DNA of 32,000 bases from Devosia nanyangense (lineage in GTDB: Bacteria > Pseudomonadota > Alphaproteobacteria > Rhizobiales > Devosiaceae): positions 2,045 through 34,044 of the forward strand of contig JACRAF010000049.1 of the NCBI GenBank assembly GCA_016213505.1, given 5' to 3'. The notes beneath the pieces are model-generated. The model saw only the letters and a program-made list of their open reading frames with translations. It was not told where the DNA came from and ran no database searches. The position numbers were made by a program, and so were the translations under genes. Of this stretch, positions 6,997 through 31,127 are shown piece by piece. The stretch's first letter is position 1, and each line of letters opens with the position of its first letter.

Positions 6997-8193
6997 TTGG
7001 ACGTTCGGCTGAGATTCCCGCTAGTGCGGCCGTTGATTCTCGACGATTGTTGGCCGTTGGAGGGATACGGAGCCCTTGTCGAGTTCGAAAGGAACGACCG
7101 GCAGGCTGTTGCGCTCGTTGTGACCTTTCGAAATCAATCGGTGGACCTAGCACCCCAAGTTCGGCCTCTGTCCGGTGGACTACCCAAGGCGGAAATCAAC
7201 ATCCGGGGTAACTTCGCGTTGAAGGCGCGTCAGATCGTGGGGCGATTCACCGACTACCTGAACCTCCATTCAGATGTTCTCGTCGACACCGACAACTTCG
7301 CCGTCGAATACTTGCTTGTCGACGAGACCGAGCGAACACAGCTACACGTCTTCAACTTCACTACGTCGACTCAGTTGCCGCCCTCTCGCCTTGCTTTCAG
7401 CATGGTCGCGCAAGCCTTTTTTGCTGGTGAGGGGACCGATGATCCCTCTTTCGCATCACACCTGTCACGAACTGCGAGAGAAGCGCTCGCAAATGAGCGA
7501 TACATCGACGCGTTTCGCTACGGCTTTCTCCTCATTGAGGCAATGTATGGGGATGGCAACTTCAAGACGAAGCAACTAGTGGCGAGCCTCAGGTCGAATG
7601 CGACGTTCATGGCCATCCTGACCGACACTATGACCGATCTCGCGACCAGCAGGATTTCAGAGGTCAGGACGCTCATGGCCTCTCACGCGACACCTGAGAA
7701 ACTGGTCGAACATCTCGTCGATCGAAGAGGATTCTACTTTCATGGCAACGCAAAGCATCAAGGCGCATGGCACCCGAACCAGCATCAAGCCGCCCAACCT
7801 ATAGCTGAAGTTGCTGTACTCACGGCCGCCGGCATAGCGCACTCATTCTCCTCAGCCATGTTTGCTCCCCACATTGGTTCGCGACACTTCGATAACGCAA
7901 GGAAGCAGGGTGCCATCATGAGTTTCATTGCCGAAATCCGTTTTTTGGACGCGCACGGCTTTGAGAGGACCCGAACAATAAACGTGAACACCCCTGGAAC
8001 CGCGCTTCACAACCAACTGGCGTTGCGCCTTCACAAGGACTTGCTAGAGACCGTAGAGGTTGAGATGCGCGATTGTCAGGTGATCGCCATCGCGGCGAGA
8101 GAGACAAAATCAGGAAGAGAAGTGTTCAAAGCCAATTACTTGGCTCAGGTTGCGGAGCGGGAAACGTCCGAGCATCCGCCAGAATCCGACTAG
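6997..8193 (+). CDS. Orphan hypothetical protein in a low-GC islet. Possible HEPN-like (R-x4-H) protein. Start codon uncertain.
   Basis: It is the only long ORF in the roughly 6900-8200 low-GC stretch; 7261-7320 counts 30/60 G+C against about two-thirds elsewhere. Codon usage is atypical for the host (AGA, CGA, ATA, TCA, TTT). The track start is TTG, and the first in-frame ATG is only around aa 135. I recognise no family. An R244-x4-H249 motif (DRRGFYFHG, 7726-7743) is present. Confidence 0.55.
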   Translation: MDVRLRFPLVRPLILDDCWPLEGYGALVEFERNDRQAVALVVTFRNQSVDLAPQVRPLSGGLPKAEINIRGNFALKARQIVGRFTDYLNLHSDVLVDTDNFAVEYLLVDETERTQLHVFNFTTSTQLPPSRLAFSMVAQAFFAGEGTDDPSFASHLSRTAREALANERYIDAFRYGFLLIEAMYGDGNFKTKQLVASLRSNATFMAILTDTMTDLATSRISEVRTLMASHATPEKLVEHLVDRRGFYFHGNAKHQGAWHPNQHQAAQPIAEVAVLTAAGIAHSFSSAMFAPHIGSRHFDNARKQGAIMSFIAEIRFLDAHGFERTRTINVNTPGTALHNQLALRLHKDLLETVEVEMRDCQVIAIAARETKSGREVFKANYLAQVAERETSEHPPESD

Positions 8194-10784: not shown

Positions 10785-13700
10785 TTGGGCAAGATCTTCA
10801 TTTCACATTCGTCGGCCAACAACGCCGAGGCGTTGGCGATCCATGATTGGCTCGCCGCGCAGGGCTGGGGCGACGTCTTCCTCGATCTCGACCCGCGCCG
10901 CGGTCTGGTCGCCGGCGACCGCTGGCAGGCGGCGCTCAAGGCCGCCGCCGAGCAGTGCGAGCTGATCCTCATCCTGATCAGCCCGGATTGGGCGAAATCG
11001 AAATGGTGCCTCGCCGAGTTCCTGCTCGCCAAGCAGATGAACAAGCAGATCCTCGGCGTCCTGGTGAAGCCGACCCCGCTGGGCGACCTGCCGGTCGAAC
11101 TCACCGCCGAGTGGCAGCTGGTCGATCTCAGCGCCCCCAATCCCGGCTGGTCGGTCACCATTTCGCCGCCGCGCTTCGAGCCCGAAACGACGATCCAGTT
11201 CTCCGGCACCGGTCTCGCCCGGCTTTCGGCGGGCCTCCAGAAAGCCGGGCTCGATCCCGATAATTTCCTCTGGCCGCCGGCCTCCGACCCGCAGCGCGCG
11301 CCCTATCGCGGGCTGTTGCCGCTCGATGCCGACGACGCCGGCATCTTCTTCGGCCGCGACGGCGCCATCGTTCTGACCCTCGATGCGCTACGCGGCCTCC
11401 GCGCCGCCGCCGCGCCGCGCTTCACGACCATTCTGGGCGCCTCGGGCGCCGGCAAATCTTCGTTCCTCCGTGCCGGCCTCTTGCCACGACTCGATCGCGA
11501 CAGCCGGCATTTCTACGTCCTGCCGGTGATCCGCCCCGAGCGCGCCGCGCTCACCGGCGAGCACGGCTTTGCCGCCATGCTCGCGCTCGCCCTCAAGGCC
11601 CGCAACCTCACCCGCAACCGCGCCGATCTTCGCGATGCGGCCATCGCCGGCGCCGCCGCCGTTGCCCCGCTCCTCAAGCAGCTGGCGATCGCCGAGGATG
11701 CTGGCGACGGCGGCGCCGACGGGCCGCCCACCCTTGTCATCGCCATCGACCAGGCCGAGGAATTGCTGACCGCCGACAACGCCGAGGCCGGCCAGTTGCT
11801 GACGCTGCTCGCCGATCTGGGGCAGCGCGACGATCCGGCCGTCCTCGTCATCCTCACCGTCCGCTCCGACAGCTTCGATCAGCTCCAGGCGCGGCCCGAA
11901 CTGGCGCCGACCCAGCCGCATCATCTTGTCGATCTGCCGCCGGTGCCGTTCGGGTCGTTCGGCGACATCATCCGCGGCCCGGCCCGCCGGGTCACCGCCG
12001 CCGGGCGCAAGCTCACCCTCGACGAGACACTGGTCGATGCGCTGCTGAGCGACATCGAGAAGGGCGGCGCCAAGGATGCGCTGCCGCTGCTCGCCTTCAC
12101 GCTGGAACGGCTTTACAGGGACTACGGCGCGGACGGCGACCTGCAGCTTTCGGAATACGGGAAGCTCGGCCGTATCCGCGGCGCCATCGAAGCGGCGGTC
12201 GAGCAGGCCCTGGGCAAGGCCGACGCCAACCCCGCCATCCCGCGCGACCGCGCGGCGCGGCTGGCGCTGCTCCGCCGCGGCCTCATTCCCTGGCTCGCCG
12301 GCATCGACCCCGACACCGGCTCGCCGCGCCGCCGCGTCGCCCGCCTCGCCGAAGTGCCCGAGGAGGCCCGCCCCCTGATCGAACTCATGGTCGCCGAGCG
12401 CCTGCTCGCCACCGACATCGACAAGCAGACCGGCGAGCGCACCATCGAGCCGGCGCACGAGGCGCTGCTGCGCCAATGGGGCGCGCTCGACGGCTGGCTG
12501 GTCGAGGATTCCGCCGATCTCGGCCTCGTCGAGGCCCTCCGCCGCGCCGCCACCGACTGGGCCGCCAACGCCAACGCGGCCGAATACGTCGTCCACAAGG
12601 GGGCGCGGCTCGCCACCGCCGAGCAGCTGGCGGCCGATGACAAATTCGCCGCCTACCTCACCTCCGTCGACCGCGCCTATCTGAGCGCCGCCCGCGACGC
12701 CGAGAACGCCGCCGCGCGAAAAGCCCGGGCCGCCCGAACGCGGCTGACCATCGCGGCCGCCGTGGTGGGTGTGGTGCTGGTCGCCGGCGCCACGGCCGGA
12801 TACTTCATCTGGTCGGCGGGCGAAGGTGCAAAAGTCCTTGCCGCTGCCAATTTCGAGATCGCCCGTTCCGAGGCCGCCCTGCGCGCCGGCCAGCCTGAGG
12901 AGGCGGCGCAAGCCGCGCTTGCGGCCTATGACCTCTTGCCCTCAACCGCGACGCGCACCGCCGCGCTCACGGCAGCAATGGCCGTCCCGCCCAATGCCTC
13001 GATCATCTTCCCCGTTGCGGAGCGCATTGCCGACGCCGCTTTTCTCGATTCCGATCATCTGCTCGTGTTGAGCGCCCGGGGCGCGGTCACCACACTCGAT
13101 CTTGCTATGCGCAAAGCCACCGGGGGCACTGCGCTGTCCGCCTCGCCGCCTCCCATTGCGCTGTCGCCCGACGGAACGTTGGTGGTCCATGCCGACGCCA
13201 GCCTCACCGGCCTCGAAGGCAGCCTCGTGGCGGCCGCGCCGGTCGAAGAATTCGCGGCCAGGGCGGGGAGTGTCTCGGCCGGCCGCGGCGGCAAGGTGAT
13301 CGCCATGATCGGTCTGATCGGCGATGTCCTGGTCCGCGATTGCCGCTCGTTGCCCTGCATCGATCACCGCCTCGCCGAGGGCAGCGCCACCGCGCTCGCG
13401 CTCACCGCGGATGGTGCCCGGCTGGCGGTCGGCCGCGACACCGGTGAAGTTGCGTTCTACAGCGACTTCGCCGCCGCGCCCGTCGTGGTCCCGAGCGGGG
13501 ACGGCGGTGTCGTCTCGCTCGCCTGGTTCGCCGGGGCCGATCGCCTCGCCATCGGCACCGAGGGCAATTCGCTGCTGCTGCTCGATCCAGCGCAGCCCGC
13601 CGCATTGGCACGCATCGAGCTCACCGTTCATCCGGGCGTTGTCGCCGCTTCGCCGACGGCCCCGCTCATTGCCGTCAGTTGCGCCGGCCGCGACATCTGC

Positions 13701-14849
13701 ATCTATGGCGACGATGGCGGCCTGCGGCAGGAGTTGGCCGGCCACAACAATGCCATCGCCGCGATCCGCTGGAGCGCCGACGGAGCTTCGCTCGCCTCGG
13801 TCGCGCCCAACGATCCCATCCGCATCTGGACGCTCGCTCCCGACCGCGACATCGCCTTTGACCGCCGCGCCGGCAGCGACCCGCTCACCGCGCTGGCGGT
13901 CGACCGCGCGCGCGGCATCATCGCGGCCGGCGACAAGACTGGCGCGCTGACCCTTTGGTCCGGCGAGGCGCCCCCGCAGCACCTCGGCCCGCCCGATGGC
14001 GTCGACGCTCCCGTCACTTCGCTGGCATTCCTCTCCGATGGCCGCCTTGCAGCCGTGTATCAAAGCAAGGCGGTCGCCGTATGGTCGCTGGACAAGACCA
14101 CTCCCGACAAGCTGCTGACCCTCGACAACCTCAGCTTTTCGCGCGTCGCCGCGCTCACCGGCGACATCCGCGCCGCCGTGCCACTCTCCGACAAGACGAT
14201 CCTCGTCCTCTCCGGCGACGAGTTGCGCGAGACCCGCGTCGCCGCCGATTCCATGCCGCTCGACCAATGGGGGCTCGCCGCCGCGCCCGCCGCCAACACC
14301 GCCTTCGTCTCCTACTCCGACGGCACCATCCGCCGCCGCGATCTCGGCGCGGGCGGCGAGGGCACGATCGTCTTCGACGCAAAGGCTTCGATCTGCGGCG
14401 CCGCGCCCACCACCGACAACAATGGCGCCAAGAGCCTCGATGTCAGCGCCGACGGCAAATGGCTCGTCGCCACCCGCACCGATGCGCAGGTCATCGTCCA
14501 CAATCTCACCGATCCATTGAAGCCGATCTGCATCGCGCTGCCGGCGCCGGACAGCAAGACCGTCGCCTTCTCGCCCGATACGAGCAAACTCGCGATCCTC
14601 AGCGCCACCGACCGGCTGTTCGTCTTCGATCTGGCCCACCCGGACGATGCCATCATCCTCGGCGCCCCGGCGGTCCCCGACCATTCACCCGTCGCCGCCG
14701 CCGCCGGCAAATCGCGCACCACCTCGTGGCTGGCCTGGCTCGATGACAAGACCCTCGCGATTTCGACCATCGCCGGAACGGTCGAAACCATCGCCCTCGA
14801 TACCGACTCCTGGCGGGCTCGTGTGGACAGCCTGGTCTTCACCCAATAG
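10785..14849 (+). CDS. TIR domain / STAND-class P-loop NTPase / single TM helix / roughly 14 WD40-like beta-propeller blades (1354 aa)
   Basis: - TIR: KIFISHSS...SKWCLAEF, with the conserved Glu at aa 78 (11016-11018).
- Pre-NTPase signature: PYRGLLPLDADDAGIFFGRD (11301-11360).
- Walker A: GASGAGKSS (Lys224 at 11454-11456).
- Walker B: LVIAIDQAEEL (Asp322 at 11748-11750).
- TM helix: LTIAAAVVGVVLVAGATAGYFIW (12744-12812), preceded by RKARAARTR (positive-inside).
- Propeller: about 14 repeats of a 'hydrophobic-x-SPDG/ADG...h-h-h-D/S-L' blade pattern from about 13020 to 14846, including one near-canonical WD repeat, LAGHNNAIAAIRWSADGASLASVAPNDPIRIWTL (about 13734-13835).
- Start: TTG. It is the only start that retains the first TIR strand. 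Confidence 0.85.
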   Translation: MGKIFISHSSANNAEALAIHDWLAAQGWGDVFLDLDPRRGLVAGDRWQAALKAAAEQCELILILISPDWAKSKWCLAEFLLAKQMNKQILGVLVKPTPLGDLPVELTAEWQLVDLSAPNPGWSVTISPPRFEPETTIQFSGTGLARLSAGLQKAGLDPDNFLWPPASDPQRAPYRGLLPLDADDAGIFFGRDGAIVLTLDALRGLRAAAAPRFTTILGASGAGKSSFLRAGLLPRLDRDSRHFYVLPVIRPERAALTGEHGFAAMLALALKARNLTRNRADLRDAAIAGAAAVAPLLKQLAIAEDAGDGGADGPPTLVIAIDQAEELLTADNAEAGQLLTLLADLGQRDDPAVLVILTVRSDSFDQLQARPELAPTQPHHLVDLPPVPFGSFGDIIRGPARRVTAAGRKLTLDETLVDALLSDIEKGGAKDALPLLAFTLERLYRDYGADGDLQLSEYGKLGRIRGAIEAAVEQALGKADANPAIPRDRAARLALLRRGLIPWLAGIDPDTGSPRRRVARLAEVPEEARPLIELMVAERLLATDIDKQTGERTIEPAHEALLRQWGALDGWLVEDSADLGLVEALRRAATDWAANANAAEYVVHKGARLATAEQLAADDKFAAYLTSVDRAYLSAARDAENAAARKARAARTRLTIAAAVVGVVLVAGATAGYFIWSAGEGAKVLAAANFEIARSEAALRAGQPEEAAQAALAAYDLLPSTATRTAALTAAMAVPPNASIIFPVAERIADAAFLDSDHLLVLSARGAVTTLDLAMRKATGGTALSASPPPIALSPDGTLVVHADASLTGLEGSLVAAAPVEEFAARAGSVSAGRGGKVIAMIGLIGDVLVRDCRSLPCIDHRLAEGSATALALTADGARLAVGRDTGEVAFYSDFAAAPVVVPSGDGGVVSLAWFAGADRLAIGTEGNSLLLLDPAQPAALARIELTVHPGVVAASPTAPLIAVSCAGRDICIYGDDGGLRQELAGHNNAIAAIRWSADGASLASVAPNDPIRIWTLAPDRDIAFDRRAGSDPLTALAVDRARGIIAAGDKTGALTLWSGEAPPQHLGPPDGVDAPVTSLAFLSDGRLAAVYQSKAVAVWSLDKTTPDKLLTLDNLSFSRVAALTGDIRAAVPLSDKTILVLSGDELRETRVAADSMPLDQWGLAAAPAANTAFVSYSDGTIRRRDLGAGGEGTIVFDAKASICGAAPTTDNNGAKSLDVSADGKWLVATRTDAQVIVHNLTDPLKPICIALPAPDSKTVAFSPDTSKLAILSATDRLFVFDLAHPDDAIILGAPAVPDHSPVAAAAGKSRTTSWLAWLDDKTLAISTIAGTVETIALDTDSWRARVDSLVFTQ

Positions 14850-14873
14850 TCTCGGGGGATCGGGGAGGGGCGC

Positions 14874-16625
14874 GTGCAGCATCGGGGCAAATCAGTGCGT
14901 TCGGCGGGCCGCCTGCTGCTTGCGCTGGCGCTGTCGACCAGCCTCGTTGCGCCCATCGCGCCGGCTTTCGCCGGCGCCATCGAGCGCCTTGCCCCCGCCC
15001 CGTCTGCTCCGGCCGCGCCCCCCGGCACCGAGCCGGCAGCCTTCCGCACCTGGGTGCAGCTCGTGTGGAATCCCGTGACCCGCGCCCTCGAAAGGCTGCG
15101 TTTTACCGCCTGGGATCCCGTCCCCTCGCTCGGGCTCGAGCTCAGCTGGCTGCCCGACGATCCTGCCGCCGGCCAGAGCGGGCCGCTCGAAGGCCGCGGC
15201 ACCCTCTCGTTCCGCAAGCCCGGCGCCCCGGCCTACGACGCATCCGCCACCGTGGCGCAATATCGCGGTACGCTCAGGGCGGGCCGTGCCGACGGCTTTG
15301 GTGAATTCCTCGACCAGTCCGGCTTTGCCTATGCCGGCGCCTGGCGCGACGGCCTGATGGAGGGCGAGGGCCGGCTCACCCTCGCCAATGGCGATCAGTA
15401 TGTCGGCGGCTTCCGCGCCGGCCGCAGCGACGGGCGCGGCGTCTTCACCGACGCCAGCGGCCGCATCTATGCGGGCAGCTTCACCGCGGGGCTGCCCGAT
15501 CCCGAAGCGATCCTCGCCCAGGATTCGCCCGAGGGTCTGCGCATCGGCGTCGTCGCCGAGCGCCGCCCGCACAATTACGAGCTCGGCATCGACCCCTTGA
15601 GCTATACCTCGGCCAGCACCGGCGAGACCCTCGATATCCTGCCCGACGATCAGCGCCTGCTCGACGTCTGGCACGGCGCGGCGCCGATCGGCATGACCGA
15701 CGAGGAGATCCACGCCTTCAACAACGGCTCGACCACCGCCAATTTCCTCGGTCCCTACGAGCGCTTCGATCCCTTGTCGCTGGTGTTCGAACTCGAGAAC
15801 GCCTTGACCGACACCGTCTCGGTCGTCGGCGGCTTCCTAGATGTCAGCGACAGCGTGCGCCAGCCCGAGCCGGCCATGCAGGTCCGCCCGTTCCCGCGTG
15901 ATCCCTGTTCGGGCACCATCGATTTCCTGCCGCTGTTCTTCATCGACAATTTCGGCTGGACCGCCGCCGACAACGCTGCGCTCGCCATCACCGCCGGCTC
16001 GGTCGATGGACGCCCCGAGGGCACGCCGATCGAGGTGCCGCTCGGCGCCATCGCCGACAGCATGAAGATCGACCTCACCGCGCAACTGACGGCGCTCGGC
16101 CTCGATACCGAGTACGTGTCGCACGAGCGGCTCCGCTGTTCCGATCCCAACGACCAGCGGCTCTGCCTCGCCGAGCTGAAACAATCCGGCCATTTCGGCC
16201 AGCTGAGCAACTTCCTCTCGCTCGACTACACCACCGTCACCGTTGCCGTGATGGGCACCCTCGATTACGATTGGACCGTCTCCGGCGGCACGGTGAGCCA
16301 CAAGAGCTCGCCGTTCTCGGTGATCCTCCCCATCGCCACGGTCGCCAGCGACGCCGAATGCGGCGAGGGCGGCGAGATCATCCCGGTCAACCACGATCCG
16401 TTCCAGCTCCGTCTCGACGAGCAGAACTACAAGATCGCCATTCCATTCGCCGGTGACGTCACCCCCGGCTTCACCTCGCGCTGGCGCATCGAACTGTCGG
16501 CGCCCGAAACCTCCGAGCACGATTTCCGCCTGGTGCTGGTCCTCACCGACGGCAGCCAGGTCGTCTCACGTCCGGTGCACCTCACCTACTTCATGCCCCC
16601 CAAGCGTGAAACGCTGGCGCATTGA
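14874..16625 (+). CDS. Secreted MORN-repeat protein with a C-terminal domain of about 380 aa and unknown function
   Basis: GTG start 24 bp after the TIR-STAND stop, preceded by GGGGAGGGG. The signal peptide is RLLLALALSTSLVAPIAPAFA|GA. There are four tandem MORN-like repeats (YRGTLRAGRADGFGEF, YAGAWRDGLMEGEGRL, YVGGFRAGRSDGRGVF, YAGSFTAGLPD) at about 15261-15500. I do not recognise the remainder, which contains 4 Cys. Confidence 0.75.
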   Translation: MQHRGKSVRSAGRLLLALALSTSLVAPIAPAFAGAIERLAPAPSAPAAPPGTEPAAFRTWVQLVWNPVTRALERLRFTAWDPVPSLGLELSWLPDDPAAGQSGPLEGRGTLSFRKPGAPAYDASATVAQYRGTLRAGRADGFGEFLDQSGFAYAGAWRDGLMEGEGRLTLANGDQYVGGFRAGRSDGRGVFTDASGRIYAGSFTAGLPDPEAILAQDSPEGLRIGVVAERRPHNYELGIDPLSYTSASTGETLDILPDDQRLLDVWHGAAPIGMTDEEIHAFNNGSTTANFLGPYERFDPLSLVFELENALTDTVSVVGGFLDVSDSVRQPEPAMQVRPFPRDPCSGTIDFLPLFFIDNFGWTAADNAALAITAGSVDGRPEGTPIEVPLGAIADSMKIDLTAQLTALGLDTEYVSHERLRCSDPNDQRLCLAELKQSGHFGQLSNFLSLDYTTVTVAVMGTLDYDWTVSGGTVSHKSSPFSVILPIATVASDAECGEGGEIIPVNHDPFQLRLDEQNYKIAIPFAGDVTPGFTSRWRIELSAPETSEHDFRLVLVLTDGSQVVSRPVHLTYFMPPKRETLAH

Positions 16626-16638
16626 GACTGCGCACCCA

Positions 16639-18324
16639 TCACCCCGGCTTCGACAGCTCGAACAAATTGGCGATCGGGATCAGCCGCGCCGCGATCGTCC
16701 CCTGCTTGAACACCCGCATTTCGAGCAGCGTTCCCGAGCCGCGTGGGGCGCTCTGGTCGAACAGGAAATTGCCCAGAGAATAGAGCATCTGCGCCTGCCC
16801 GCCGGCGAACGGCGCGATCGCCGCCGAGGCCTGGTGCGAATGGGCGCCCACGATCAGCGCCACTCCGCAGCGGACGAGGCGTTCGGCGATGGCGCGTTCC
16901 TTGTCGCCGGCGCTGCTCGTATACTCCGTCCCCCAGTGCACGAAGGCGATCAGCGGCGGCGCCGCCGTCAGCCCGCACACCCAATCGAGATCATCCGGAT
17001 CGCCGATCGCATCGCCGACGAACTTGCCGGAAACGAAGTTCAGCGCCAGCAGCCGGAACGCCCCGAAATCGGTCACCGTGCCGTGCTGCATCGGCGCCAC
17101 CCCGAGCCCCGTGAGCAGTTTCACCGTTTCCACGCGCCCCTCCGCCCCGAGGTCATTGGCGTGGTTGTTGGCAAGGCTCGCCGCTTTGACATTGAGCGCC
17201 GCCAGCACCGGCGCCGCATCGTCCGTCACCATAACGTGGGTCGAGAAATCAACCCCTGTCACCGGCCCATCGAGCAGCACGCCCTCGAGATTGACGATCA
17301 GCGGCGTCCGCCGCGTCGCCGCCAGGACCGTGTCGCGGATCATCGTCCACGCTGCCGGGTCGCGCAGCGCCGGCAGGAAATACCGGCCGAGCAGCACGTC
17401 GCCGCCGAAGATCATCCGCGTCTGGCCGGGATAGTCGAACACCGTTCCATCCGCCGCATCGCGGACGAAGGCCGTCACCACATAGCTCGTGGTCGAGCCC
17501 GGCCCGGTGCCGTACTCGACCGAATTGCCGTTGGCGAGCACCACCGGGTGCGCGTCGAACACCTCGCGCTGCAGCGCCAGCTGGATGAACTGAGCGGCTT
17601 TGGAATCCATATGCTCCGGCTGGAGCAGCGGCGCCACCTGCGCCGGATCGCCCGTGGCGATCATCGCCAGCGTCTCCTGGTCGCGCGCCATCGCCTCGGG
17701 CATGGGCCGGTAGTGCGAATAGTCAGTCGATTGCACCACCAGCGTATCGGGGCCGATCAGCGGCTTCAGCGCCTCGGTCATTGCCCGCCAGTCGGCCTCG
17801 GTGGCGTTGACCGAGCCGAGCAGCGGGATCACCGTCGCGTTCGGGAAGAAGTGCTTGATGAACGGCGCTTCCGCCATCACCCCGTGCTCGGTGGCGAGGG
17901 TCGGCAGCACCTCGACCAGGTCCGACCGCACGGCGAGGGCGTTCACCCCCGCGGTGTCCGACGCCACCGTGCCGAACACCGATTTGAGGTTCTCTCGTGT
18001 CGTCCCGAAGGCCTTGCTCACCTTGTGGAAGTGGTCGGGCGAAACGAGGAGGATCGTCCGGTAGTGCCCCGCCGACGCCGCCCAGAAGCCGCGGGCGATG
18101 AGGTCGGCGGCGAGCAGATGATGCGGCACGCTGATCCCGGTAACGCCCGCCGGCGGGGCGAAAGCCGGCGTCTCTTTGGCGATCGCGGCGAGGATCGGCG
18201 CCGGGTCCTGCGCCGGCAAGTACGGATTGTCGGCCGCGTGCAGCGTCCCGCCGGACGGGCCCAGCCACAATCCGGCCAGCACCAGCCACACCGCCGCCTT
18301 TGCCCGGCCCGCAACCCCTGTCAC
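16639..18324 (-). CDS. Secreted fusion protein: Memo-like (AmmeMemoRadiSam system protein B family) domain plus CapA/PGA_cap metallophosphatase-like domain
   Basis: The N-terminal half has GISVPHHLLA, LLVSPDHF and QSTDYSHY (Memo/AmmeMemoRadiSam-B pattern). The C-terminal half has IFGGDVLLGR, VNLEGV, LANNHANDLG, FVHWGTEY and VGAHSH (CapA-type pattern). I chose the GTG at 18324, preceded by GGGAG 6 nt upstream, which yields the signal peptide (M)TGVAGRAKAAVWLVLAGLWLGPSGGTLHA|AD. The track ATG at 18429 would overlap the divergent gene's ATG head-to-head. Confidence 0.75.
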   Translation of the reverse strand: MTGVAGRAKAAVWLVLAGLWLGPSGGTLHAADNPYLPAQDPAPILAAIAKETPAFAPPAGVTGISVPHHLLAADLIARGFWAASAGHYRTILLVSPDHFHKVSKAFGTTRENLKSVFGTVASDTAGVNALAVRSDLVEVLPTLATEHGVMAEAPFIKHFFPNATVIPLLGSVNATEADWRAMTEALKPLIGPDTLVVQSTDYSHYRPMPEAMARDQETLAMIATGDPAQVAPLLQPEHMDSKAAQFIQLALQREVFDAHPVVLANGNSVEYGTGPGSTTSYVVTAFVRDAADGTVFDYPGQTRMIFGGDVLLGRYFLPALRDPAAWTMIRDTVLAATRRTPLIVNLEGVLLDGPVTGVDFSTHVMVTDDAAPVLAALNVKAASLANNHANDLGAEGRVETVKLLTGLGVAPMQHGTVTDFGAFRLLALNFVSGKFVGDAIGDPDDLDWVCGLTAAPPLIAFVHWGTEYTSSAGDKERAIAERLVRCGVALIVGAHSHQASAAIAPFAGGQAQMLYSLGNFLFDQSAPRGSGTLLEMRVFKQGTIAARLIPIANLFELSKPG

Positions 18325-18427
18325 CAATCGCTCCCGGCCTCGTCTGTCCCGGAGCGTGGTCCCCAGGATTTCACTTGTCGCGCCAGCATGCCATGTTGCG
18401 CCCCGATTGTGGGAAATCTCCGCCGCC

Positions 18428-20467
18428 ATGAACCCCCGCCGCCTTGCCCTCTATCTCGCCCTTCTGGTCGTTCTGGGGCTGATCGGCTTCGGCCTCGCGC
18501 TCTGGGGCCTGTTCGGCTGCGCCCCGCCGCCGCTGCCCGGCGATGAGCTCTGGACCTGGCGGCGAAATCTTGGTGAGGCGCTGGGTCTCCTCGTCCGCCT
18601 CGGCAGCCAATCGTGCTTCACCGCCGATCCGGGTGGCGCTCTCGCGCTCTGGCTGGGCAGCCGCACCGTCGCCATCCTCGCCGCCATCCTCGCGCTGATC
18701 GTGCTGTGGGAGAGCGTCGGGCGCGAACTGAGGCTCGCCTGGTTCCGCGCGCGCGGCGGCCATTTGGTCCTCGCCGGCACGGCTGACGATCTCGCCGGCC
18801 TCGCCCGGCAGCACGGCCGCTTCGCCGGCACGGTGTTTCTGGCGCCCGATCGCGGCGCCGCCGTCGACATCGCCCGCCACCGCCCGTTCGCGGAAATCGC
18901 CATGATCGACGCCAAACGCCTGCCGCTTCAGCTTGCCCGCTTCGGCGCAAACAAGGCGACGCTGCTTGCCGCCACCACGCCGAGCGATCTCGCCAATGTC
19001 GCACTCGCCGAAGCGGGCCTCGCGACACCCGGCAGCGGCGAGCTGCTGGTCCGGCTGGAACAACACTCCGTGCGCAGCTTTTCCAGTCATCGCCTGCGCA
19101 TCCGCGCCGCTGACCGGGGCCGGCCGCTGGCCATCGTCTCGCTGACCCAGTTGCAGACCCGCCGCGGCCTCGCCGCTGCAATGGCCGGCCGCTATACGCT
19201 CGATGGAGCGCCGCGCGTCCATATCGCGCTCTGCGGCAGCGGGCGCGGGCTCGAGGCGGCGAGCTTCGAGATCGCCCGCCAGGGTTTTGGCCTCGATACC
19301 GAAAAGCCGCTGCTCTCGATCCTGCGCACCGGCGCCGGCGATTTCGCCCCCGGCGCCGTCCACCGGCTCGAATCCTCCGGCGTCGCCGAAATCGAGATGG
19401 CCGACGTGCTCGCCGCCTCCGCCGATGGTCTCGATCGCGCCATCGCGGCGGCCGTCGAAGACCATCCGCCGTTGCGCGCCGTCCACTGCATGGGCGAGAC
19501 GGCCGGTGAGGCCGAGGCCCTGGCCCAGCGCTGGGAGGAGGTGCTGCTGGCCCTCGGCCAGCCCGTGCCGCCGATCGTCGCCTACGCCGCCGAGGATCGC
19601 CCGCTCGGCTCGACCGGCATGATCCGCGTCGCCACCGCGCACGATCTGGCCGAAGCCCGCGAGGCCGCCCGCCTGATGGACCAGCGCGCCCGCGCCGTGC
19701 ACCAGCTCTTCCTCGACGCCCAGCGTCTCGCACGCGGCGACAAGTTTGGCAGCGCCCCCGCCGAGGTCGATTGGGAGCGCCTGCCCGAGAGTTTTCAGAA
19801 CGACAACCGCAACGTCGCCGACCAGATGGATTTTAAGCTCGCCACCATCTTCATGCTGGCCCGTCCGGGCGCGGGCAGTGTGGCGCCGACGCCCGACGAC
19901 GCCGAGCAACTGGCCGAACTCGCCCATGCCCGCTGGTGGGCGGCCAAGGCGCTGAGCGGCTGGCGCTTCGGCCCCGTGCGCGACGACAAAAAGATGCTGC
20001 ACCCCGACATGCTGCCCTACGACCAGCTCTCCGAGCCGGTCCGCCAGAAGGACCGCGACGAAGTGGCGAGCCTCGCGGCCATGGCCGGCCTCGCCGGCGA
20101 GGCGCTGCTGCGCGAGCGCCGCATCGGCCTGCCGCGCCCGCTCGGGACCGCGGCGCTGACGCGTTTCGTCGACGATCTGCGGGCGACGCCCAAGCCTTTC
20201 GTCCCGGTCGCCGTCTTATCGCTCGATGACGCCGCGATGGTGCGGCTCGCCCAGGCCCTGATCGGCGCCGGCATCGCCATCGAGGCGGTGCTCGGCCGCT
20301 CGACCGGCGATCTGCGCGGCGATCCCGGCGTCGCGCCGGAGCTGGCCTCCGTGCTGCGCCGCGCCTGGCGCATCCACGTCGCCGGCGACGACGATGCCCG
20401 CCCGGCGCTCGCCGAACGCGCGACGGCGTGCGCCAACGAGAACGGAGCGATCGATGCGCTGGTCTAG
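18428..20467 (+). CDS. Membrane-anchored (2 TM) protein with two Rossmann/TrkA-N-like modules and a RyR (ryanodine-receptor repeat) domain, 679 aa
   Basis: TM1 is LALYLALLVVLGLIGFGLALWGLF and TM2 is ALALWLGSRTVAILAAILALIVLW. Rossmann-like modules are HLVLAGTADDLAGLA and HIALCGSGRGLEAASFEIARQG. The RyR-domain signature is WERLPESFQNDNRNVADQMDFKL...LAELAHARWWAAKALSGWRFGPVRDDKKMLHPDMLPYDQLSEPVRQKDRDEV (about 19740-20080). ATG at 18428. Confidence 0.75.
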   Translation: MNPRRLALYLALLVVLGLIGFGLALWGLFGCAPPPLPGDELWTWRRNLGEALGLLVRLGSQSCFTADPGGALALWLGSRTVAILAAILALIVLWESVGRELRLAWFRARGGHLVLAGTADDLAGLARQHGRFAGTVFLAPDRGAAVDIARHRPFAEIAMIDAKRLPLQLARFGANKATLLAATTPSDLANVALAEAGLATPGSGELLVRLEQHSVRSFSSHRLRIRAADRGRPLAIVSLTQLQTRRGLAAAMAGRYTLDGAPRVHIALCGSGRGLEAASFEIARQGFGLDTEKPLLSILRTGAGDFAPGAVHRLESSGVAEIEMADVLAASADGLDRAIAAAVEDHPPLRAVHCMGETAGEAEALAQRWEEVLLALGQPVPPIVAYAAEDRPLGSTGMIRVATAHDLAEAREAARLMDQRARAVHQLFLDAQRLARGDKFGSAPAEVDWERLPESFQNDNRNVADQMDFKLATIFMLARPGAGSVAPTPDDAEQLAELAHARWWAAKALSGWRFGPVRDDKKMLHPDMLPYDQLSEPVRQKDRDEVASLAAMAGLAGEALLRERRIGLPRPLGTAALTRFVDDLRATPKPFVPVAVLSLDDAAMVRLAQALIGAGIAIEAVLGRSTGDLRGDPGVAPELASVLRRAWRIHVAGDDDARPALAERATACANENGAIDALV

Positions 20468-22196
20468 CTTCATTGGGCCCCTCGCGACCCTCGCCGCCTG
20501 CCTCGTGGCGGGCGCCGCCCTCGCCATCACGCCGGTGACCGATCTCGAACGCTCCGCCACCCGGCAGGCGATCGCCGCCCAACTCGGCCCGAGCCATTCC
20601 TATGCGCTCCTCATCGGCATCTCGGACTTCGACGATCCGGCCTGGCGCGACCTCGCCGGCGTCGCCCCCGAGATCGGCAAGGTCGGCGCGGCGCTGACCA
20701 ATCAGGGCTTCACCATCGTCCCCGAGAGCCATGTCGGCCGCCTCGACCACGCCGGCCTCAAGACCGCCATCGAGCATTTCTTTTCGACCTACGGCGCCAA
20801 TGCCGAGGACCGCCTCGTCGTCTATATCGCGACGCACGGCTTCGCCGATCCTTCGATCCCCAATGCCGACGGCTACCTCATCGCGTCGGACGCCGCGGCG
20901 CCCGCCGGCGGTAAAGTCAAGAACGGCTATTCGGTCGACGAGCTCTCCGCCGCGCTGACCTCGATCGCTGCCCAGCACGTCTTCCTGTTCTTTGATTCGT
21001 GCTTTTCGGGCGCCATGCTGCCCGAGCCCACCCGCGCCGCCGACACCATCCTTGCAGGCAAACCCGAGCTCGCCTTGAGCAAGGAGACCGCGGCGTGGAC
21101 GCTGAGCCTCCTCGCCCACAATGCCCGCCTCGTCCTCACCGCCGGCAACGCCAGCCAGAGCGTGCCCGATATCGACAATCCGTTCTCGGCCGCCGTGGTC
21201 GATGCGCTGAGCGGCGCTGCCGATGCCGATGGCGACGGGCTGACGCTGGGCACCGAGATCGCCCAGTTCGTGCGCGGCCGCGTCGCCCGCGCCACCCGCC
21301 TCGCCGGCGCCGCCAACGACCCGGTGTTCGCTGTGCTGCCCAAGCTCGTCGCGCCCCTCGAGCCGCGCCCCGACGTGCCGAACCCCGATCGCGTCGACTA
21401 CGCGCTGCAGGGCGATTTCATCTTCCTCACTCCCGGCGGCCCGAAGGCCTCGGCCGAAGCGGGGATCAGCGAGCAGGAGGCGCTGCTCGCGGACCGCGAG
21501 GCGCGCCTGATCGACGGCCAGTTCACCGCCTGCCTCGATTGCCCGACCATGGTGAAGCTCCCCGGCACCGAGCCGCAGCTGGCCCTCGCCAGCACCGAAA
21601 TCACTTACGCCCAGTGGGACGCCTGCTTCCGCGAAAGCGCCTGCCACCGCTACCTGCCCGACGACGGCTTCGGCCGCGGCGACCGCCCGGCCGGCAACGT
21701 CACCTGGCTCGATGCGCTCGAATACGTCACCTGGCTCGGCACCAAGCCGACCAAGGACCAGCCGTGTGTCGGCTATCGCCTGCCCACCGAGGCCGAGTGG
21801 AACGCCGCCGCCCTCTACGGCACCGCCGGTCCCGTCACCTGGGCTGAGGCGGTCGCCGACACCTCGCCGGTCTGCTGGGGCTGTGGTGCCGGCGAGGACG
21901 GCACGGCCGCCGTGCGCACCGCCTCGCTGCCGGCCAACGCTGCGGGGCTCTACGACATGGTCGGCAATCTCTGGGAGTGGGTGGACGGCGCCGGCGCCGC
22001 CGCGTGCGACCTGACCGCCATCCGCCAGTCCGGCGCCTGCGTCCCCGGCCGCGTCATGGGCGGCTCCTTCGCCACCCGCGCCGATGCTCTCGCCACCATC
22101 GGCGACGGCGGCCTTGCCCCCCGCACCGGCAACGACCGCCCGTGGTCGTCCCCCACCATCGGCATGCGCGTGGCGTGCGAGGTGACGGGCGGCTGA
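20454..22196 (+). CDS. Exported caspase-like (peptidase C14) protease fused to an FGE-sulfatase-like (SUMF1/FGS) domain, 580 aa
   Basis: The ATG at 20454 is preceded by GGAG and overlaps the upstream stop by 14 nt. The N-terminal signal is MRWSSFIGPLATLAACLVAGAALA, with a possible lipobox LAAC. The caspase dyad is YIATHG (His128, 20835-20837) and FFDSCFSG (Cys183, 21000-21002). FGE-sulfatase motifs are CPTMVKLPG, EITYAQWDAC, PAGNVTWLDALEYVTWL, YRLPTEAEWNAAA, GLYDMVGNLWEWV, VMGGSF and IGMRVA. The post-GGS Cys pair of true FGEs is absent. Confidence 0.85.
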   Translation: MRWSSFIGPLATLAACLVAGAALAITPVTDLERSATRQAIAAQLGPSHSYALLIGISDFDDPAWRDLAGVAPEIGKVGAALTNQGFTIVPESHVGRLDHAGLKTAIEHFFSTYGANAEDRLVVYIATHGFADPSIPNADGYLIASDAAAPAGGKVKNGYSVDELSAALTSIAAQHVFLFFDSCFSGAMLPEPTRAADTILAGKPELALSKETAAWTLSLLAHNARLVLTAGNASQSVPDIDNPFSAAVVDALSGAADADGDGLTLGTEIAQFVRGRVARATRLAGAANDPVFAVLPKLVAPLEPRPDVPNPDRVDYALQGDFIFLTPGGPKASAEAGISEQEALLADREARLIDGQFTACLDCPTMVKLPGTEPQLALASTEITYAQWDACFRESACHRYLPDDGFGRGDRPAGNVTWLDALEYVTWLGTKPTKDQPCVGYRLPTEAEWNAAALYGTAGPVTWAEAVADTSPVCWGCGAGEDGTAAVRTASLPANAAGLYDMVGNLWEWVDGAGAAACDLTAIRQSGACVPGRVMGGSFATRADALATIGDGGLAPRTGNDRPWSSPTIGMRVACEVTGG

Positions 22197-25057: not shown

Positions 25058-26451
25058 TCATGCATCGGCGAAGCCGCGCGCCACCGGGGCGTTTGCGGTG
25101 CCGGTCTTTTCCAGCTGGCGCGCCACGCGCAGCGCGAAATCCTCGCGCCAGGGCGCGGCGATCACCTGCACCCCGAGCGGCAGCTTGTGGCCCTCGATCC
25201 AGATCGGCGCCACCGCCACCGGCAGGCCGATGAACGAGATCGGCTGGGTGAAGATCCCCATATTCGGCCGCACCGGCATCTCGACGCCGCCGAACATCGC
25301 CGTCTTCTGCCCGAGTTTGGGCGCGCGCATCGGCGTCGCCGGCGCGAGGATGATGTCAACCTCCTCGAACAGCTTCAGCATCTCGTCGTGATAGACCCGC
25401 CGGAATTTCTGCGCCGTCTCGACCCAGCCGGCCGGCAGCAGCGCCCCGGCCAGCAGCCGGTCGCGCACGTCCGGATCGAAATCCTGCGGCCGCGTGCGCA
25501 ACCGTTCGAGATGGAGGTTCGACCCTTCCGCCATGGTAATGAGGAAAGCCGCAGCGCGCGCCGTCTGGGCCTCCGGAACGGTGATCTTGCGGGTGACCTC
25601 GAGCGCCTTGGCGACGTGCGCCATCACCTCGCGCACCTCGGTGTCGCCGGTGAAATAGCCATCGGCGACGGCGATCCTGAGGCCGGCGCTGCCGCGCTCC
25701 AGCCGGCCCGACACCGCTTCGAGCGGCACTTGATGCTCGCCGGATCGGCCTCGTCGAAGCCCTGCATGGCGTCGTAGCTCAGCGCCAGGTCTTCCACCGA
25801 GCGCGCCAGCGGCCCCAGATGATCGAGGCTCGCCACGAACGGGAACGTACCGTGCCGGCTGAGCCGCCCATAGGTCGGCTTCAGCCCGAACAGACCGCAC
25901 AGCGATGACGGCACGCGGATCGAGCCGTTGGTGTCCGAGCCGAGCGCCAGCGGCACGAGGCCTGCCGCCACCGCCGTCGCCGAGCCGCCCGAGGAGCCGC
26001 CCGACATGTGGCCGAGATCGTGCGGGTTGCGCGACGGCCCGTCATGGGCGTTCTCGCCGGTGAAATCGTAGGCGTATTCGCCCATGTTGAGCGCGCCGAC
26101 GCAGATGGCGCCCGCCGCTTCGAGCTTTTCGATCAGCGCCGCGTCGGCCTTGGCCGGCTGGCTCTCGCGGTTGATCTTGCTGCCGGCCCGGGTCCTGAGG
26201 CCGGCGATATCGAACAGGTTCTTGGCCCCGAACGGCACCCCCGCGAGCGGCAGCTTCTTGCCGGCCTGCACGGCGACATCGACCGCCTCGGCGTGGGCCA
26301 CCGCGCGGTCCTTGAGCACGTCGGTGAAGGCGCCCAGCCGCTCATTGTTGGCTTCGATCCGCCCCAGAGCCGCGGCCACCACGTGGCGCGCCGTCGTCTC
26401 CCCGCCCCGCACCGCCCTGGCGATTTCGGCTATCCCGGCCGTTGACTTCAT
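25058..26451 (-). pseudogene. AtzE-like amidase-signature amidohydrolase, disrupted by a frameshift at about 25735-25746 (or a sequencing error)
   Basis: The N-terminal part (frame of track ORF 25624..26811, starting MKSTAGIAE at 26451) carries the amidase signature GGSSGGSATAVAAGLVPLALGSDTNGSIRVPSSLCGLFGLKPTYG and reads sensibly up to ...AMQGFDEADPA. The C-terminal part (...QVPLEAVSGRLERGSAGLRIAVADGYF... to stop 25058) continues in another frame (track ORF 25058..25900). The total span is 1394 nt, one base short of a multiple of 3. Confidence 0.8.
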
Positions 26452-26636
26452 ACCCGGTACACCGGCGCGGCCTCGGCGTGGTCCTTGAGCGGCGTCTTGT
26501 CGAGCAGCGCCGCCATCTTCGCCGCGGTCTTGAGATTGGCTTTCACCCCGGCCCGGTATTCGGGCGCAAGCTCCAGCCGGACGATCGCCGCCATCGCGTC
26601 GATCCACTGATCGAAATCGGGTAGTTTGCTCGCCAT
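26448..26636 (-). CDS. AtzG-like small protein (DUF4089-type), predicted small subunit/partner of the AtzE-like amidase
   Basis: The 62-aa sequence MASKLPDFDQWIDAMAAIVRLELAPEYRAGVKANLKTAAKMAALLDKTPLKDHAEAAPVYRV matches my recollection of the DUF4089/AtzG pattern. Its stop overlaps the amidase start as ATGA (26448-26451). Confidence 0.65.
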   Translation of the reverse strand: MASKLPDFDQWIDAMAAIVRLELAPEYRAGVKANLKTAAKMAALLDKTPLKDHAEAAPVYRV

Positions 26637-26749
26637 ACTTAGTCTGCCCCCGGGCAGCAGCGGGCCGCCCGGAAACCATGGTAGCCGCCCTGATCCCAAG
26701 AAAACAGGCCCCGCCGCCGTCTTCCACAAAGCGGAGCCCATCAAGGGGA

Positions 26750-26781
26750 CCGCCCCACCTCGGGCGAGGCAGGGCGGTTTT
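26750..26781 (+). terminator. Intrinsic-terminator-like hairpin plus T-tract with no upstream plus-strand gene (orphan)
   Basis: CCGCCC-CA-CCTC-GGGC-GAGG-CA-GGGCGG (26750-26777) is followed by TTTT (26778-81). The stem has 10 G:C-rich pairs and one 2x2 internal mismatch. Confidence 0.35.
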
Positions 26782-26977
26782 CAAGGTCAACGATCGTTCG
26801 GGGACGCGCATTGAACGCGCTCGACCGCTCCTGGTTGCCTCGAACCGGCGATTTCTTCAGGCCCCGTCAACCATCCCCGTCGCAAAGCGCGCTCCGCGGC
26901 CCGGCTCCGGCCGCCGCTAAGCCAAACTTAAGCCATGGTCCGCAACTCTGAGGGCTCCAAGACCCAGAAGGGCCTCA

Positions 26978-29942: not shown

Positions 29943-31064
29943 CTACTCGGCCACCGGCACCCACATCACCTGGTCGATCCGGCTGGCGCCGGTCGCCAGC
30001 ATCACCAGCCGGTCGAAGCCCAGCGCCACCCCGCTCGCTTCCGGCATGATTGCGAGCGCAGCGAGGAAATCCTCGTCCACCGGATAGCGCTCGCCATAGA
30101 TGCGCTGTTTTTCGTCCATCTCGGCCGCGAACCGCCGCCGCTGCTCGGCGGCATCGGTCAATTCCCCGAAACCGTTGGCGAGCTCGACGCCGCACGCGTA
30201 GATCTCGAACCGCTCCGCCACCCGCTTGTCGTCGGCGGTCCGGCGCGCCAGCGCCGCCTCGGCCGACGGATAGCGGTCGAGGATCGTCACCCGCCCGTTG
30301 CCGAGCTTGGGCTCGACCAGCTCGACCAGCATCCGGCTGAACAGGTACGACCACGTGGTGTCCGCCGGCACCGCGATCCCGACCGTCCGCATCTGCGCCG
30401 CCAGCGCGTCGCCGTCGGTCGCGCCGTCGTCGTCCATTGTCGCCAGGAGGTCGATCCCGGCGTAGCGCACGAACGCCTCGACCACGCTCAGCCGCTCCGG
30501 CTCGGCGAACGGGTCGGCCGCGCGGTCGCGGTAGCGCAGCGCCCTGGCTCCCGTCGTCTGGGCCGCGAGCCCGATCATCCGCACGCAGTCGGCGATCACC
30601 GCGTCGTAGGGCTCGCCCGCCCGGTACCATTCGAGCATGGTGAATTCCGGATGGTGCAGCGGCCCGCGCTCGCGGTTCCGCCACACATGCCCAAAACTGG
30701 CGATCCGCTGTTCGCCTGCCGCGAGGAGCTTCTTCATCGAGAATTCCGGCGAGGTGTGGAGGTACCGCGTCTGGCCCACCCCGTCATTGCCGATGGCGGT
30801 GGTGGCGAAGGCGTGCAGGTGCGTCTCGTTGCCCGGCGAGCGCTGCAGCCCGGGCGGGTCGACCATGACGAATTCCTCGCCCGCAAGGTAGCCCCGGAGC
30901 GCCGCCTCGATGCGGTTGCGCGCCAGCAGCGCCGGCCGGCGGTCGGCATGAGCGGCGGGGGTCCACCAGGGTGAAACCGGCGGCGAGGGGGGATTGGACG
31001 GCAAGGGCGGCGTCTTTCGTGCTCGGGACTGGCGGTTTTGCCGGATTTGCGCTATCGGCGGCAC
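29943..31064 (-). CDS. epmA: EF-P--(R)-beta-lysine ligase (EpmA/GenX/PoxA, class II LysRS paralog). Start uncertain.
   Basis: [43 protein letters not shown] and [12 protein letters not shown] are class II aaRS motifs 1-3 in the truncated GenX arrangement. It is divergent from efp. The start is either GTG 31064 (track) or TTG 31004; the conserved region begins around WWTP. Confidence 0.85.
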
Positions 31065-31127
31065 CGAAACAAACGATCGGCGGGTCCGCCTCTAGGCTGC
31101 CGGAACCGCCCGGACAAGGAAGAAGTA

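Follow-up and report, generated by a model that had tools for sequence, protein, structure and literature searches.

What brings a TIR domain, a ryanodine receptor (RyR) domain and a caspase together within 11.4 kb of a bacterial chromosome, and do the genes that encode them serve one purpose? The question is raised by a 32-kb chromosomal stretch of Devosia nanyangense (the window, to which coordinates refer unless another locus is named), in which five genes, designated G1 to G5, lie next to each other. G1 (10785..14849, plus strand) encodes a protein of 1354 aa with a TIR domain, an nSTAND1 NTPase, a single transmembrane (TM) helix and a WD40-type propeller region. G2 (14874..16625, plus strand) specifies an exported MORN-repeat protein and G3 (16639..18324, minus strand), which is convergent on G2, an exported fusion of a Memo-like and a CapA/PGA_cap (metallophosphoesterase-like) domain. 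G4 (18428..20467, plus strand) encodes a 2-TM protein with RCK-like and RyR domains and G5 (20454..22196, plus strand) an exported fusion of a caspase (C14) with an FGE-sulfatase/C-type-lectin-like (FGS) domain. An initial annotation had taken all five genes as a single candidate conflict or programmed-death system. The answer that we favour, with slightly better than even confidence, is that the locus consists of two separately inherited membrane-spanning conflict modules of the anti-invader or abortive-infection type, module A (G1-G3) and module B (G4-G5), which in Devosia stand side by side.

Owing to the GC content of about 0.68 the six-frame list of open reading frames (ORFs) of the window is crowded, and the coding frame was chosen for each region by its third-position GC (GC3). 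All five ORFs possess a codon composition of the coding type (GC3 0.86-0.90, with 0.86 for G1). This bears out the five genes as first called, apart from the start of G3 (see below), and the 24-nt gap between G1 and G2 and the 14-nt overlap of the G5 start with the end of G4 are also correct. The domains initially assigned (TIR, nSTAND1, WD40, MORN, Memo plus PGA_cap, RyR, caspase plus FGE-sulfatase) were all recovered by Pfam. Orthologues are roughly 65-70% identical, so that synonymous sites are saturated.

Homologues of G1, G2 and G3 co-occur in every context examined. The triad recurs in six non-Devosia or distant contexts (L025, the P0174 contig, L113, L114, L106 and L112), in three gene orders and with G1 identities of 26-37%. 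In L025, the P0174 contig, L113 and L114 the distant G2 homologues (33-51% identity) are located between a TIR-nSTAND1-WD40 gene and a convergent Memo-PGA_cap gene, and no RyR or caspase-FGS gene was found in reach of the triad. A tblastn search with G2 against PLSDB revealed the triad on a conjugative plasmid, pRL31b3 of Rhizobium leguminosarum bv. trifolii 31B (L112; CP050083.1, 18700-37530). It comprises a TIR-nSTAND1-TM-WD40 protein of 1322 aa, an exported 408-aa protein corresponding to the C-terminal domain of G2 without MORN repeats, and a Memo-PGA_cap protein of 583 aa, in a gene order different from that of Devosia. The plasmid triad adjoins a CHAT-TPR-S protease, a GH108 lysozyme with PG_binding_3 and a full PADLOC candidate pair, PDC-M01 A+B (7e-240, 5e-113), and this stretch is defence-island-like. 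Its Rhizobium host is cultivable and suited to genetics. An exported WG-repeat protein is an occasional fourth member of the triad (L106, L113). G1-G2-G3 is thus a self-contained unit, and G3 groups with G1-G2 rather than with G4-G5.

Module B was traced by scanning an alignment of G4 (A1) against one genome per GTDB species, which gave 24 loci, and by tblastn with all proteins of the window. A G5 homologue lies directly downstream of the G4 homologue in 23 of the 24 loci, and in 26 of 27 when L026, L106 and L107 are included; in the sole exception, L023 from Myxococcota, the protein is a fusion of the type Ser/Thr-kinase-RCK-RyR. Within the pair the genes overlap or are at most 40 nt apart. 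The pair is still present where G4 identity is only 33-34%, as in Ensifer adhaerens ST2, Xanthobacteraceae, Beijerinckiaceae and another metagenome-assembled genome (MAG) of the Hyphomicrobiales. G4-G5 is therefore a conserved two-gene unit. L019 has a WD40-caspase with signal peptide, two trypsins and a serpin near module B, and L024 a caspase, two trypsins and a second TrkA_N-RyR protein. The proteases near module B all carry signal peptides, and an exported protease set is thus the typical setting of module B. The L019 genes form a long same-strand exported array around the RyR/caspase-FGS pair (L019:911-16431), composed of the WD40-caspase, a trypsin, two unknown proteins and the second trypsin, with the serpin, of Tat type, downstream. 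The array looks like an extracytoplasmic protease/inhibitor set. A further neighbour, absent from the window, adjoins module B in the two distant loci L106 (6346-8937) and L020 (13750-16341): it is a Crp-like protein of 863 aa (cyclic-nucleotide-binding domain, Crp-type helix-turn-helix, TPR, an unassigned C-terminal domain) with 39% identity over its full length.

The initial annotation had proposed to test whether the genes are co-localised elsewhere. They are, non-randomly, within each of the two sets; as one five-gene unit they are not. Module A occurs with no module B within 10 kb in L025, the P0174 contig, L112, L113 and L114, and module B occurs without module A in eight loci, three of them from Devosia (L007, L013, L015) and the others being L019, L020, L022, L024 and L107. 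A single integrated system, in which all five proteins would be obligate partners of one pathway from sensor to effector, is contradicted by these separate occurrences as far as an obligate unit is concerned. In its favour, at least 12 loci of Devosia have all five genes in an unbroken row, although synteny reduces these loci to about a single evolutionary event. In L106 all five families are neighbours again, in another order and at about 44% identity. Taken together we regard one integrated five-gene system as very unlikely.

In L007, L013 and L015 G1-G3 are missing and unrelated genes precede G4. The view of the locus as resident was thus half right. The host-like GC content (0.66-0.73 in the cluster, the same as in the flanks) and the lack of transposase and integrase genes in the 32 kb hold, but module A is present or absent at the same site among Devosia genomes and behaves like accessory DNA.

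G1 is most likely the sensor and effector of module A. Its TIR domain (aa 4-116; 10794..11132; Pfam TIR_2, 1.3e-15) is predicted to be cytoplasmic and contains the catalytic Glu78. It is followed by the nSTAND1 module (aa 173-597; 11301..12575; PF20703, 5.5e-66, 224 bits against a cut-off of 27) with the Walker A sequence GASGAGKS and the Walker B sequence IDQAEE; GASGAGKS and DQAEE do not vary. Residues E78 and K224, which had been put forward for mutagenesis, are invariant in 12 orthologues, as are D322, E325 and E326 of Walker B. The TIR domain has weak ThsB-type matches (PADLOC, 5.9e-6; NCBIfam Thoeris III ThcB4, 6e-9, below the cut-off). A single TM helix at about aa 655-677 (12747..12815; Kyte-Doolittle peak 2.17) is preceded by the positive patch KARAARTR, which indicates an N-in/C-out orientation and would place aa 681-1354 (12825..14846) in the periplasm. 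Pfam recognises WD40-type propellers at aa 866-1282, and from the length of the region, 674 aa, a double propeller is plausible. Three close pairs of cysteines are conserved in this outside part (853/858, 966/972 and 1204/1249). Mean identity to the reference is 0.86 in the TIR domain and 0.80 in nSTAND1, and 0.43-0.53 in aa 681-1110. Variation within G1 is thus greatest in the periplasmic region and peaks in its first propeller (0.43), which is what one would expect of an immune sensor that faces its ligand. Loci also differ in the N-terminal effector, which is TIR in most and DUF4062-like in L106. Effector swapping is typical of STAND immune proteins.

The single TM helix is also found in the G1 homologues of L025, L106 and L112. 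The same one-helix plan was seen in other proteins: in the nSTAND1-FGS proteins of L028, L030 and L032 and the TIR-bearing L043, where the helix lies between the NTPase and the outside domain, in a DUF4062-like-nSTAND1-TPR protein (L025:526-4107) and in a TIR-TM-TPR protein (L020:4044-6401). A transmembrane layout with an outward-facing sensor domain would thus be a trait of the family. Periplasmic lectin domains have already been predicted for some STAND proteins that are targets of diversity-generating retroelements (DGRs) (Dore et al. 2024, PMC10907252), so the transmembrane STAND theme is not wholly new.

The two exported partners of G1 are less easily interpreted. G2 combines its MORN repeats (Pfam MORN, 8e-13) with an all-beta C-terminal domain of about 350 aa and has a putative signal peptide with an AFA cleavage site. 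The conserved element is the C-terminal domain and not the MORN repeats; in alignment A3 an AECGEGG motif and four cysteines of this domain are invariant, and the plasmid homologue keeps this domain alone. A search with the AlphaFold2 model of G2 (pLDDT 75) against the Protein Data Bank (PDB) gave a match confined to the MORN repeats. Transglutaminase- and OspA-type matches of the C-terminal domain were weak and were dismissed as noise, and a thioester motif of the CGEQ kind was rejected for AECGEGG, which has no Gln. G3 matches Pfam Memo (5e-12), PGA_cap (1e-28) and NCBIfam AmmeMemoSam_B (1e-20), and metal-site motifs of both the Memo and the CapA type appear to be readable in its sequence. 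Its ORF, minus strand and Memo/CapA fusion agree with the initial annotation; the start does not. The ORF itself reaches 18429, but the most likely start is the GTG at 18324, which has a GGGAG Shine-Dalgarno sequence 6 nt upstream. This start gives a normal signal peptide and leaves 103 bp to G4, as opposed to a head-to-head overlap of start codons. The intergenic region so defined (18325..18427) lies between the divergent G3 and G4 and presumably holds their promoters; a sigma-70 scan recognised none in it. A literature search for Memo or PGA_cap together with TIR returned only word-start noise.

G4, the first gene of module B, encodes a protein of 679 aa with 100% identity to the one annotated as HY834_16025 in a MAG of Devosia nanyangense. 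It is predicted to consist of two TM helices with Arg-rich cytoplasmic ends and a periplasmic loop between them, tandem RCK/TrkA-N-like Rossmann domains, the RyR domain and a C-terminal alpha/beta domain. The AlphaFold2 model, which is of high confidence (pLDDT 90, pTM 0.84), begins with TM1, a short loop and helix on the periplasmic side, and TM2; then come two domains of the Rossmann type, the helical RyR domain and a small alpha/beta domain. A Foldseek search of this model against the PDB found GsuK first, solved with ADP and NAD, then TrkA gating rings, MthK and Repeat12 of human RyR3 (with ATP/ADP). The probability was 1.0 for GsuK, TrkA and MthK, with low overall TM-scores of about 0.3. 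Among viral models the matches were phage RyR-domain proteins and a phage K+ channel protein. Pfam TrkA_N was matched in the G4 homologues P0076, the second RyR protein of L024 and L108. The loop (aa 31-63; 18520-18618) carries, in alignment A1, the invariant motif C31-x-P-x2-L-P-G-D-(E)-x-W and an invariant C63. It could be stapled by a disulfide, and with a caspase as partner its Asp-containing site could serve for cleavage or docking.

The RyR domain of G4 (aa 489-556; 19892..20095; PF02026, 1.2e-10) deserves particular attention. RyDEP, a group of phage RyR-domain proteins, bind or cleave the TIR products 2'cADPR and 3'cADPR (isomers of cyclic ADP-ribose, cADPR) by means of H75, W78, H100 and D117, residues that are also kept in Repeat12 of animal RyR (Lopez Rivera et al., May 2026 preprint, PMC13232231). 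In G4 H500, W503, H525 and D542 are invariant in alignment A1, and an ungapped HMMER alignment with PDB 35tm_A, a RyR-domain protein of 139 aa, places them at chain positions 76, 79, 101 and 118. These are the RyDEP positions with a constant offset of +1, as a one-residue tag would give, and 35tm_A is by this offset probably RyDEP. The pocket of G4 thus appears to match the residues that hold TIR products, and binding may be predicted by analogy with the phage homologues. The cytoplasmic NAD+/nucleotide signalling proposed in the initial annotation gains support from the binding of TIR-made cADPR isomers by RyR (PMC13232231) and from the ligand residues kept in G4; the signalling itself we infer. 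The full-length G4 family is small, with 48 clusters at E<=1e-30 among 1.84 billion representative proteins, against 4,751 matches to the RyR region. A second-pass protein search with a diverse RCK-RyR alignment returned nearly the same Devosia set, with P0182 as the sole addition, and a search of PLSDB with G4 gave no match. The short RyR contigs P0083, P0084 and P0085 had uninformative neighbours.

The product of G5 is predicted to be periplasmic from its signal peptide, with a putative ALA cleavage site, and from ten invariant cysteines in the FGS half. Both halves are recognised by Pfam (Peptidase_C14 PF00656, 3.5e-7, 30.6 bits against a cut-off of 21.4; FGE-sulfatase, 7.9e-22), and the NCBIfam model 'caspase, EACC1-associated type' matches below its cut-off (3.7e-19). 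The dyad H128 and C183, named at the outset as the caspase residues to mutate, is invariant in 10 homologues down to 41% identity. A lipoprotein (LAAC lipobox) was considered and rejected, the Cys not being kept in orthologues. An exact look-up of the G5 sequence returned no record. A metagenome scan seeded with the G5 alignment picked up generic FGE motifs and mostly unrelated FGS proteins, with L026 as the only true orthologue; it incidentally exposed the nSTAND1-TM-FGS proteins mentioned above. The topology proposed in the initial annotation for the whole locus agrees with the TM helices, signal peptides and paired cysteines, and conserved cysteines concentrate in the parts predicted to lie outside. 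G1 has six of its eight there, G2 has four, the FGS half of G5 ten and the loop of G4 two.

If the two modules are inherited separately, is their adjacency in Devosia more than chance? Accessory and defence genes might gather at the same chromosomal spot with no signalling between A and B; clustering is a known habit of defence genes. Either module suffices by itself in other loci, module A has been gained or lost at this site within Devosia, in L112 it lies beside the unrelated PDC-M01 pair, and G1 of L106 has no TIR domain. Yet in L106 A adjoins B again, with identities of 44% (G4), 45% (G5), 32% (G2) and 50% (G3). There G4 and G5 are on one strand, the G1-like, WG and MORN genes on the other, and Memo/CapA follows. 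That the proximity survives such rearrangement argues for a functional tie or for co-transfer. TIR genes also accompany RCK-RyR proteins in further loci. The unrelated contig L108 (5238-13796) contains an apparent operon of overlapping genes for a Macro-domain protein, two unknown proteins of which one has a signal peptide, a TIR_2 protein of 644 aa, a 2TM-TrkA_N-RyR protein of 897 aa and a DUF2461-TIR_2 protein of 372 aa. Its RyR domain keeps H and W, with T and N at the positions of H525 and D542, and the operon can be read as a Thoeris-like arrangement with a RyR-domain membrane protein. In L020 a TIR-TM-TPR gene lies two genes from module B, along with a trypsin, and in L021 a TIR-nSTAND1 gene is 7 kb away. 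Together with RyR pocket residues that fit TIR products, these associations speak against mere neighbours, an explanation that we consider possible but on the whole doubtful.

What the computation shows are the genes, their domains, the conservation of catalytic and ligand residues and the two gene sets; topology, activities, direction of signalling, immune role and the coupling of A to B are inferred. Two modules, each able to work alone, could operate as follows. In module A a periplasmic cue would reach the fast-evolving WD40 region of G1. G2 and G3 probably act with G1, as co-sensors, guarded partners or ligand-processing enzymes. Ligand-driven oligomerisation of nSTAND1 would bring the cytoplasmic TIR domains together, and these would cleave NAD+, resulting in depletion or in a signal derived from ADP-ribose (ADPR). 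In module B the RCK and RyR domains of G4 would read an adenine-nucleotide or ADPR-type ligand. G4 would convey the ligand state to the other side of the membrane by ion flux, by an action of its conserved periplasmic loop on G5, or by both. G5 would be a disulfide-rich periplasmic caspase with a lectin-like FGS recognition domain. In Devosia the two may be coupled, with module B responding to what the TIR domain of module A produces.

Several points weigh against this scheme of two conflict modules joined by a TIR product. The separate occurrences of A and of B listed above mean that coupling is not required, and the DUF4062-like N-terminus of G1 in L106 weakens a strict relay from TIR to RyR. 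Topology is a prediction from hydrophobicity, the positive-inside rule and cysteine patterns. The G4 loop is fixed only at C31, LPGD.W and C63 and contains no K+ selectivity filter of the TVGYG kind (its consensus is C-F-x-x-x-x-G, with no conservation beyond C63). By analogy with RyR Repeat12, which also binds plain ATP and ADP, G4 may simply read the energy state. PADLOC-DB v2 gave no full-length system match, only domain-level matches of the G1 TIR to ThsB (the 5.9e-6 given above) and of the G5 caspase (8.7e-8), and none for G2-G4, which leaves the locus outside the catalogued defence systems. The flanks consist of housekeeping genes with no defence island (upstream FAA hydrolase, RecD-like helicase and IF-1; downstream a solute-binding protein, mannitol dehydrogenase, an amidase, a CHASE-PAS-GGDEF-EAL protein, EpmA and EF-P). 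In L107 (17-7930) kdpABC and kdpDE immediately adjoin a copy of module B that has two divergent RyR proteins, which may be coincidence or a hint of a role in cation or ion homeostasis.

Some of these points would suit a non-immune function in envelope or ion homeostasis or in developmental signalling. G4 would then be a nucleotide-regulated cation channel, in keeping with its likeness to GsuK, TrkA and MthK and with the kdp genes of L107. G5 would be a processing protease of the periplasm, and G1-G3 would receive an envelope cue of endogenous or kin origin. The housekeeping flanks and the lack of a match among known defence-system models are compatible with this, as is the link drawn by Kaur et al. 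(2020, 2021; PMC8195603) between conflict systems and multicellular habits, not phage alone. However, conflict systems are marked by just such features as the swapping of TIR and DUF4062, the variable sensor, the patchy presence and, in L112, the location on a plasmid and in a defence island. The TIR, CHAT, caspase, trypsin, serpin and SLATT genes nearby are likewise hallmarks of conflict. A non-immune role is thus distinctly unlikely in our view, and we retain the two conflict modules as the preferred reading.

How do these modules relate to systems already described? No description of module A or module B was found in the literature. The closest relatives of G1 are the nSTAND1/STAND-NTPase-FGS systems (PMC8195603; DGR-linked, PMC10907252), which share with it nSTAND1, intact Walker A and B motifs and an N-terminal TIR effector. 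The domain vocabulary of nSTAND1 with FGS, caspase and TIR was defined by Kaur et al. (2020, 2021; PMC8195603); FGS, caspase, trypsin and TIR are common to those systems and to the loci described here, and the nSTAND1-TM-FGS proteins retrieved align with G1 through the TM helix. In those systems, however, FGS is fused to the NTPase and often diversified by a DGR, whereas G1 ends in WD40 and FGS is found on the separate, exported G5. The window contains no reverse transcriptase gene, and involvement of a DGR was rejected. Obligate exported MORN or Memo/CapA partners and RyR proteins are not mentioned in those papers, and in the 2021 paper FGS is an intracellular sensor, unlike the sensor side predicted here to lie outside the membrane. 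The initial annotation had listed RyR among the domains recurring in surveys of NTPase-centred conflict systems; this is not borne out, since neither RyR nor MORN occurs once in Kaur et al. 2020 and 2021 (PMC8195603).

The same N-terminal effector, STAND NTPase and C-terminal repeat sensor is seen in Avs/AVAST and bNACHT proteins, and G1 has kept its Walker motifs. None of the Avs models of PADLOC matched G1. G1 differs from these proteins by a sensor beyond the TM helix, with cysteine pairs of the disulfide type, which would sample the periplasm, and by two conserved exported partners.

Thoeris, a phage defence in which infection prompts the TIR protein to make a cADPR-type signal, offers a second comparison. 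Type IV (a TIR protein with a caspase-like effector, N7-cADPR as signal; bioRxiv 2024.10.24.620036) resembles the present locus in a TIR domain with catalytic Glu and a caspase as candidate output, and type X (TIR with an ion channel; bioRxiv 2025.12.03.692087) in a channel-like membrane protein as candidate output. Common to both would be a TIR domain near a protein whose domain may, by analogy, bind TIR-made ADPR signals. ThsB is a small TIR protein, whereas the G1 TIR is fused to a STAND-TM-WD40 sensor and the modules are separable. Thoeris operons are compact, but the candidate receptor G4 belongs to another transcription unit 3.6 kb away. The type IV caspase is cytoplasmic and nucleotide-activated, whereas G5, which keeps the His-Cys dyad, is predicted to be periplasmic. 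RyR, PF02026 and TrkA are not mentioned in the text, the 29 effector types or the consulted supplements of the 2025 Thoeris survey (bioRxiv 2025.12.03.692087).

With RyDEP (PMC13232231) G4 shares the PF02026 family and an identical H/W/H/D spacing, and its structure is similar to those of phage RyR proteins. Phages use the small, soluble RyDEP against defence, as an enzyme (cADPR glycosidase) or sponge, whereas G4 is a chromosomal 679-aa 2-TM RCK protein genetically tied to a caspase. This makes G4 a candidate for a receptor on the host side, or for a protein that terminates the signal, and not for a counter-defence. Finally, RCK-gated 2-TM K+ channels and Trk rings (GsuK 4gx1/4gx5, MthK 6oly, TrkA 4j9u) resemble G4 in two TM helices, a short helix or loop and tandem RCK domains; unlike the channels, G4 has no TVGYG-type filter and carries additional RyR and C-terminal alpha/beta domains. 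On these comparisons we regard the locus as a new variant within the known STAND/TIR/caspase conflict systems, with the cellular RCK-RyR protein as its most interesting element.

If the preferred reading of two conflict modules is right, two undescribed gene sets would be added to bacterial immunity. STAND/TIR sensing would move from the cytoplasm to the periplasm, where phage entry, injected toxins and envelope damage could be detected before the cytoplasm is reached, and a cellular RyR domain would gain a role, that of a receptor on the host side, connected to RCK domains, to a membrane part resembling a channel and to a caspase in the periplasm. Animal physiology has long asked whether RyR Repeat12 is a direct target of cADPR, a question still under debate there. 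A small bacterial RyR protein would make this question directly testable, since TIR genes are adjacent (L108) or close (Devosia). Binding of TIR-derived cADPR isomers by a RyR domain was shown only in 2026, in phage anti-defence proteins (PMC13232231). A bolder conjecture, which we think unlikely but worth stating, is that RCK-RyR proteins like G4 are bacterial receptors, possibly ligand-gated channels, for TIR-made signals of the cADPR type. They would be a prokaryotic forerunner of cADPR-RyR signalling. In the present locus a STAND protein that senses the periplasm would set off a TIR alarm in the cytoplasm, which G4 would carry outward to the periplasmic caspase, an inside-out immune relay ending in envelope-driven cell death. 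For defence finders two search rules follow from the conserved sets: TIR/DUF4062-nSTAND1-TM-WD40 with the C-terminal domain of G2 and Memo/CapA, and 2TM-RCK-RyR with a signal-peptide caspase-FGS.

The remainder of the window is less distinctive. Rfam and tRNA scans revealed no element and no tRNA, and a promoter and terminator scan yielded nothing usable. A 398-aa ORF upstream of G1 (6997-8193, plus strand) has a GC content of 0.55 compared with about 0.68 in the region. It had no match in Pfam or NCBIfam and no tblastn match in the phage collection, and is an orphan and possibly foreign DNA. Downstream of G5 a divergent gene pair for an EpmA-like (tRNA-synt_2) protein and EF-P (29943-31697) forms a syntenic anchor in nearly all Devosia loci. 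The genes between G5 and this anchor (solute-binding protein, mannitol dehydrogenase, amidase, GGDEF-EAL protein) differ among Devosia genomes. The amidase gene (25058-26811, minus strand) is split into two overlapping ORFs, 25058-25900 and 25624-26811, through either a frameshift that made it a pseudogene or an error in the MAG assembly; in L001, L008, L013 and L016 it is a single contiguous gene.

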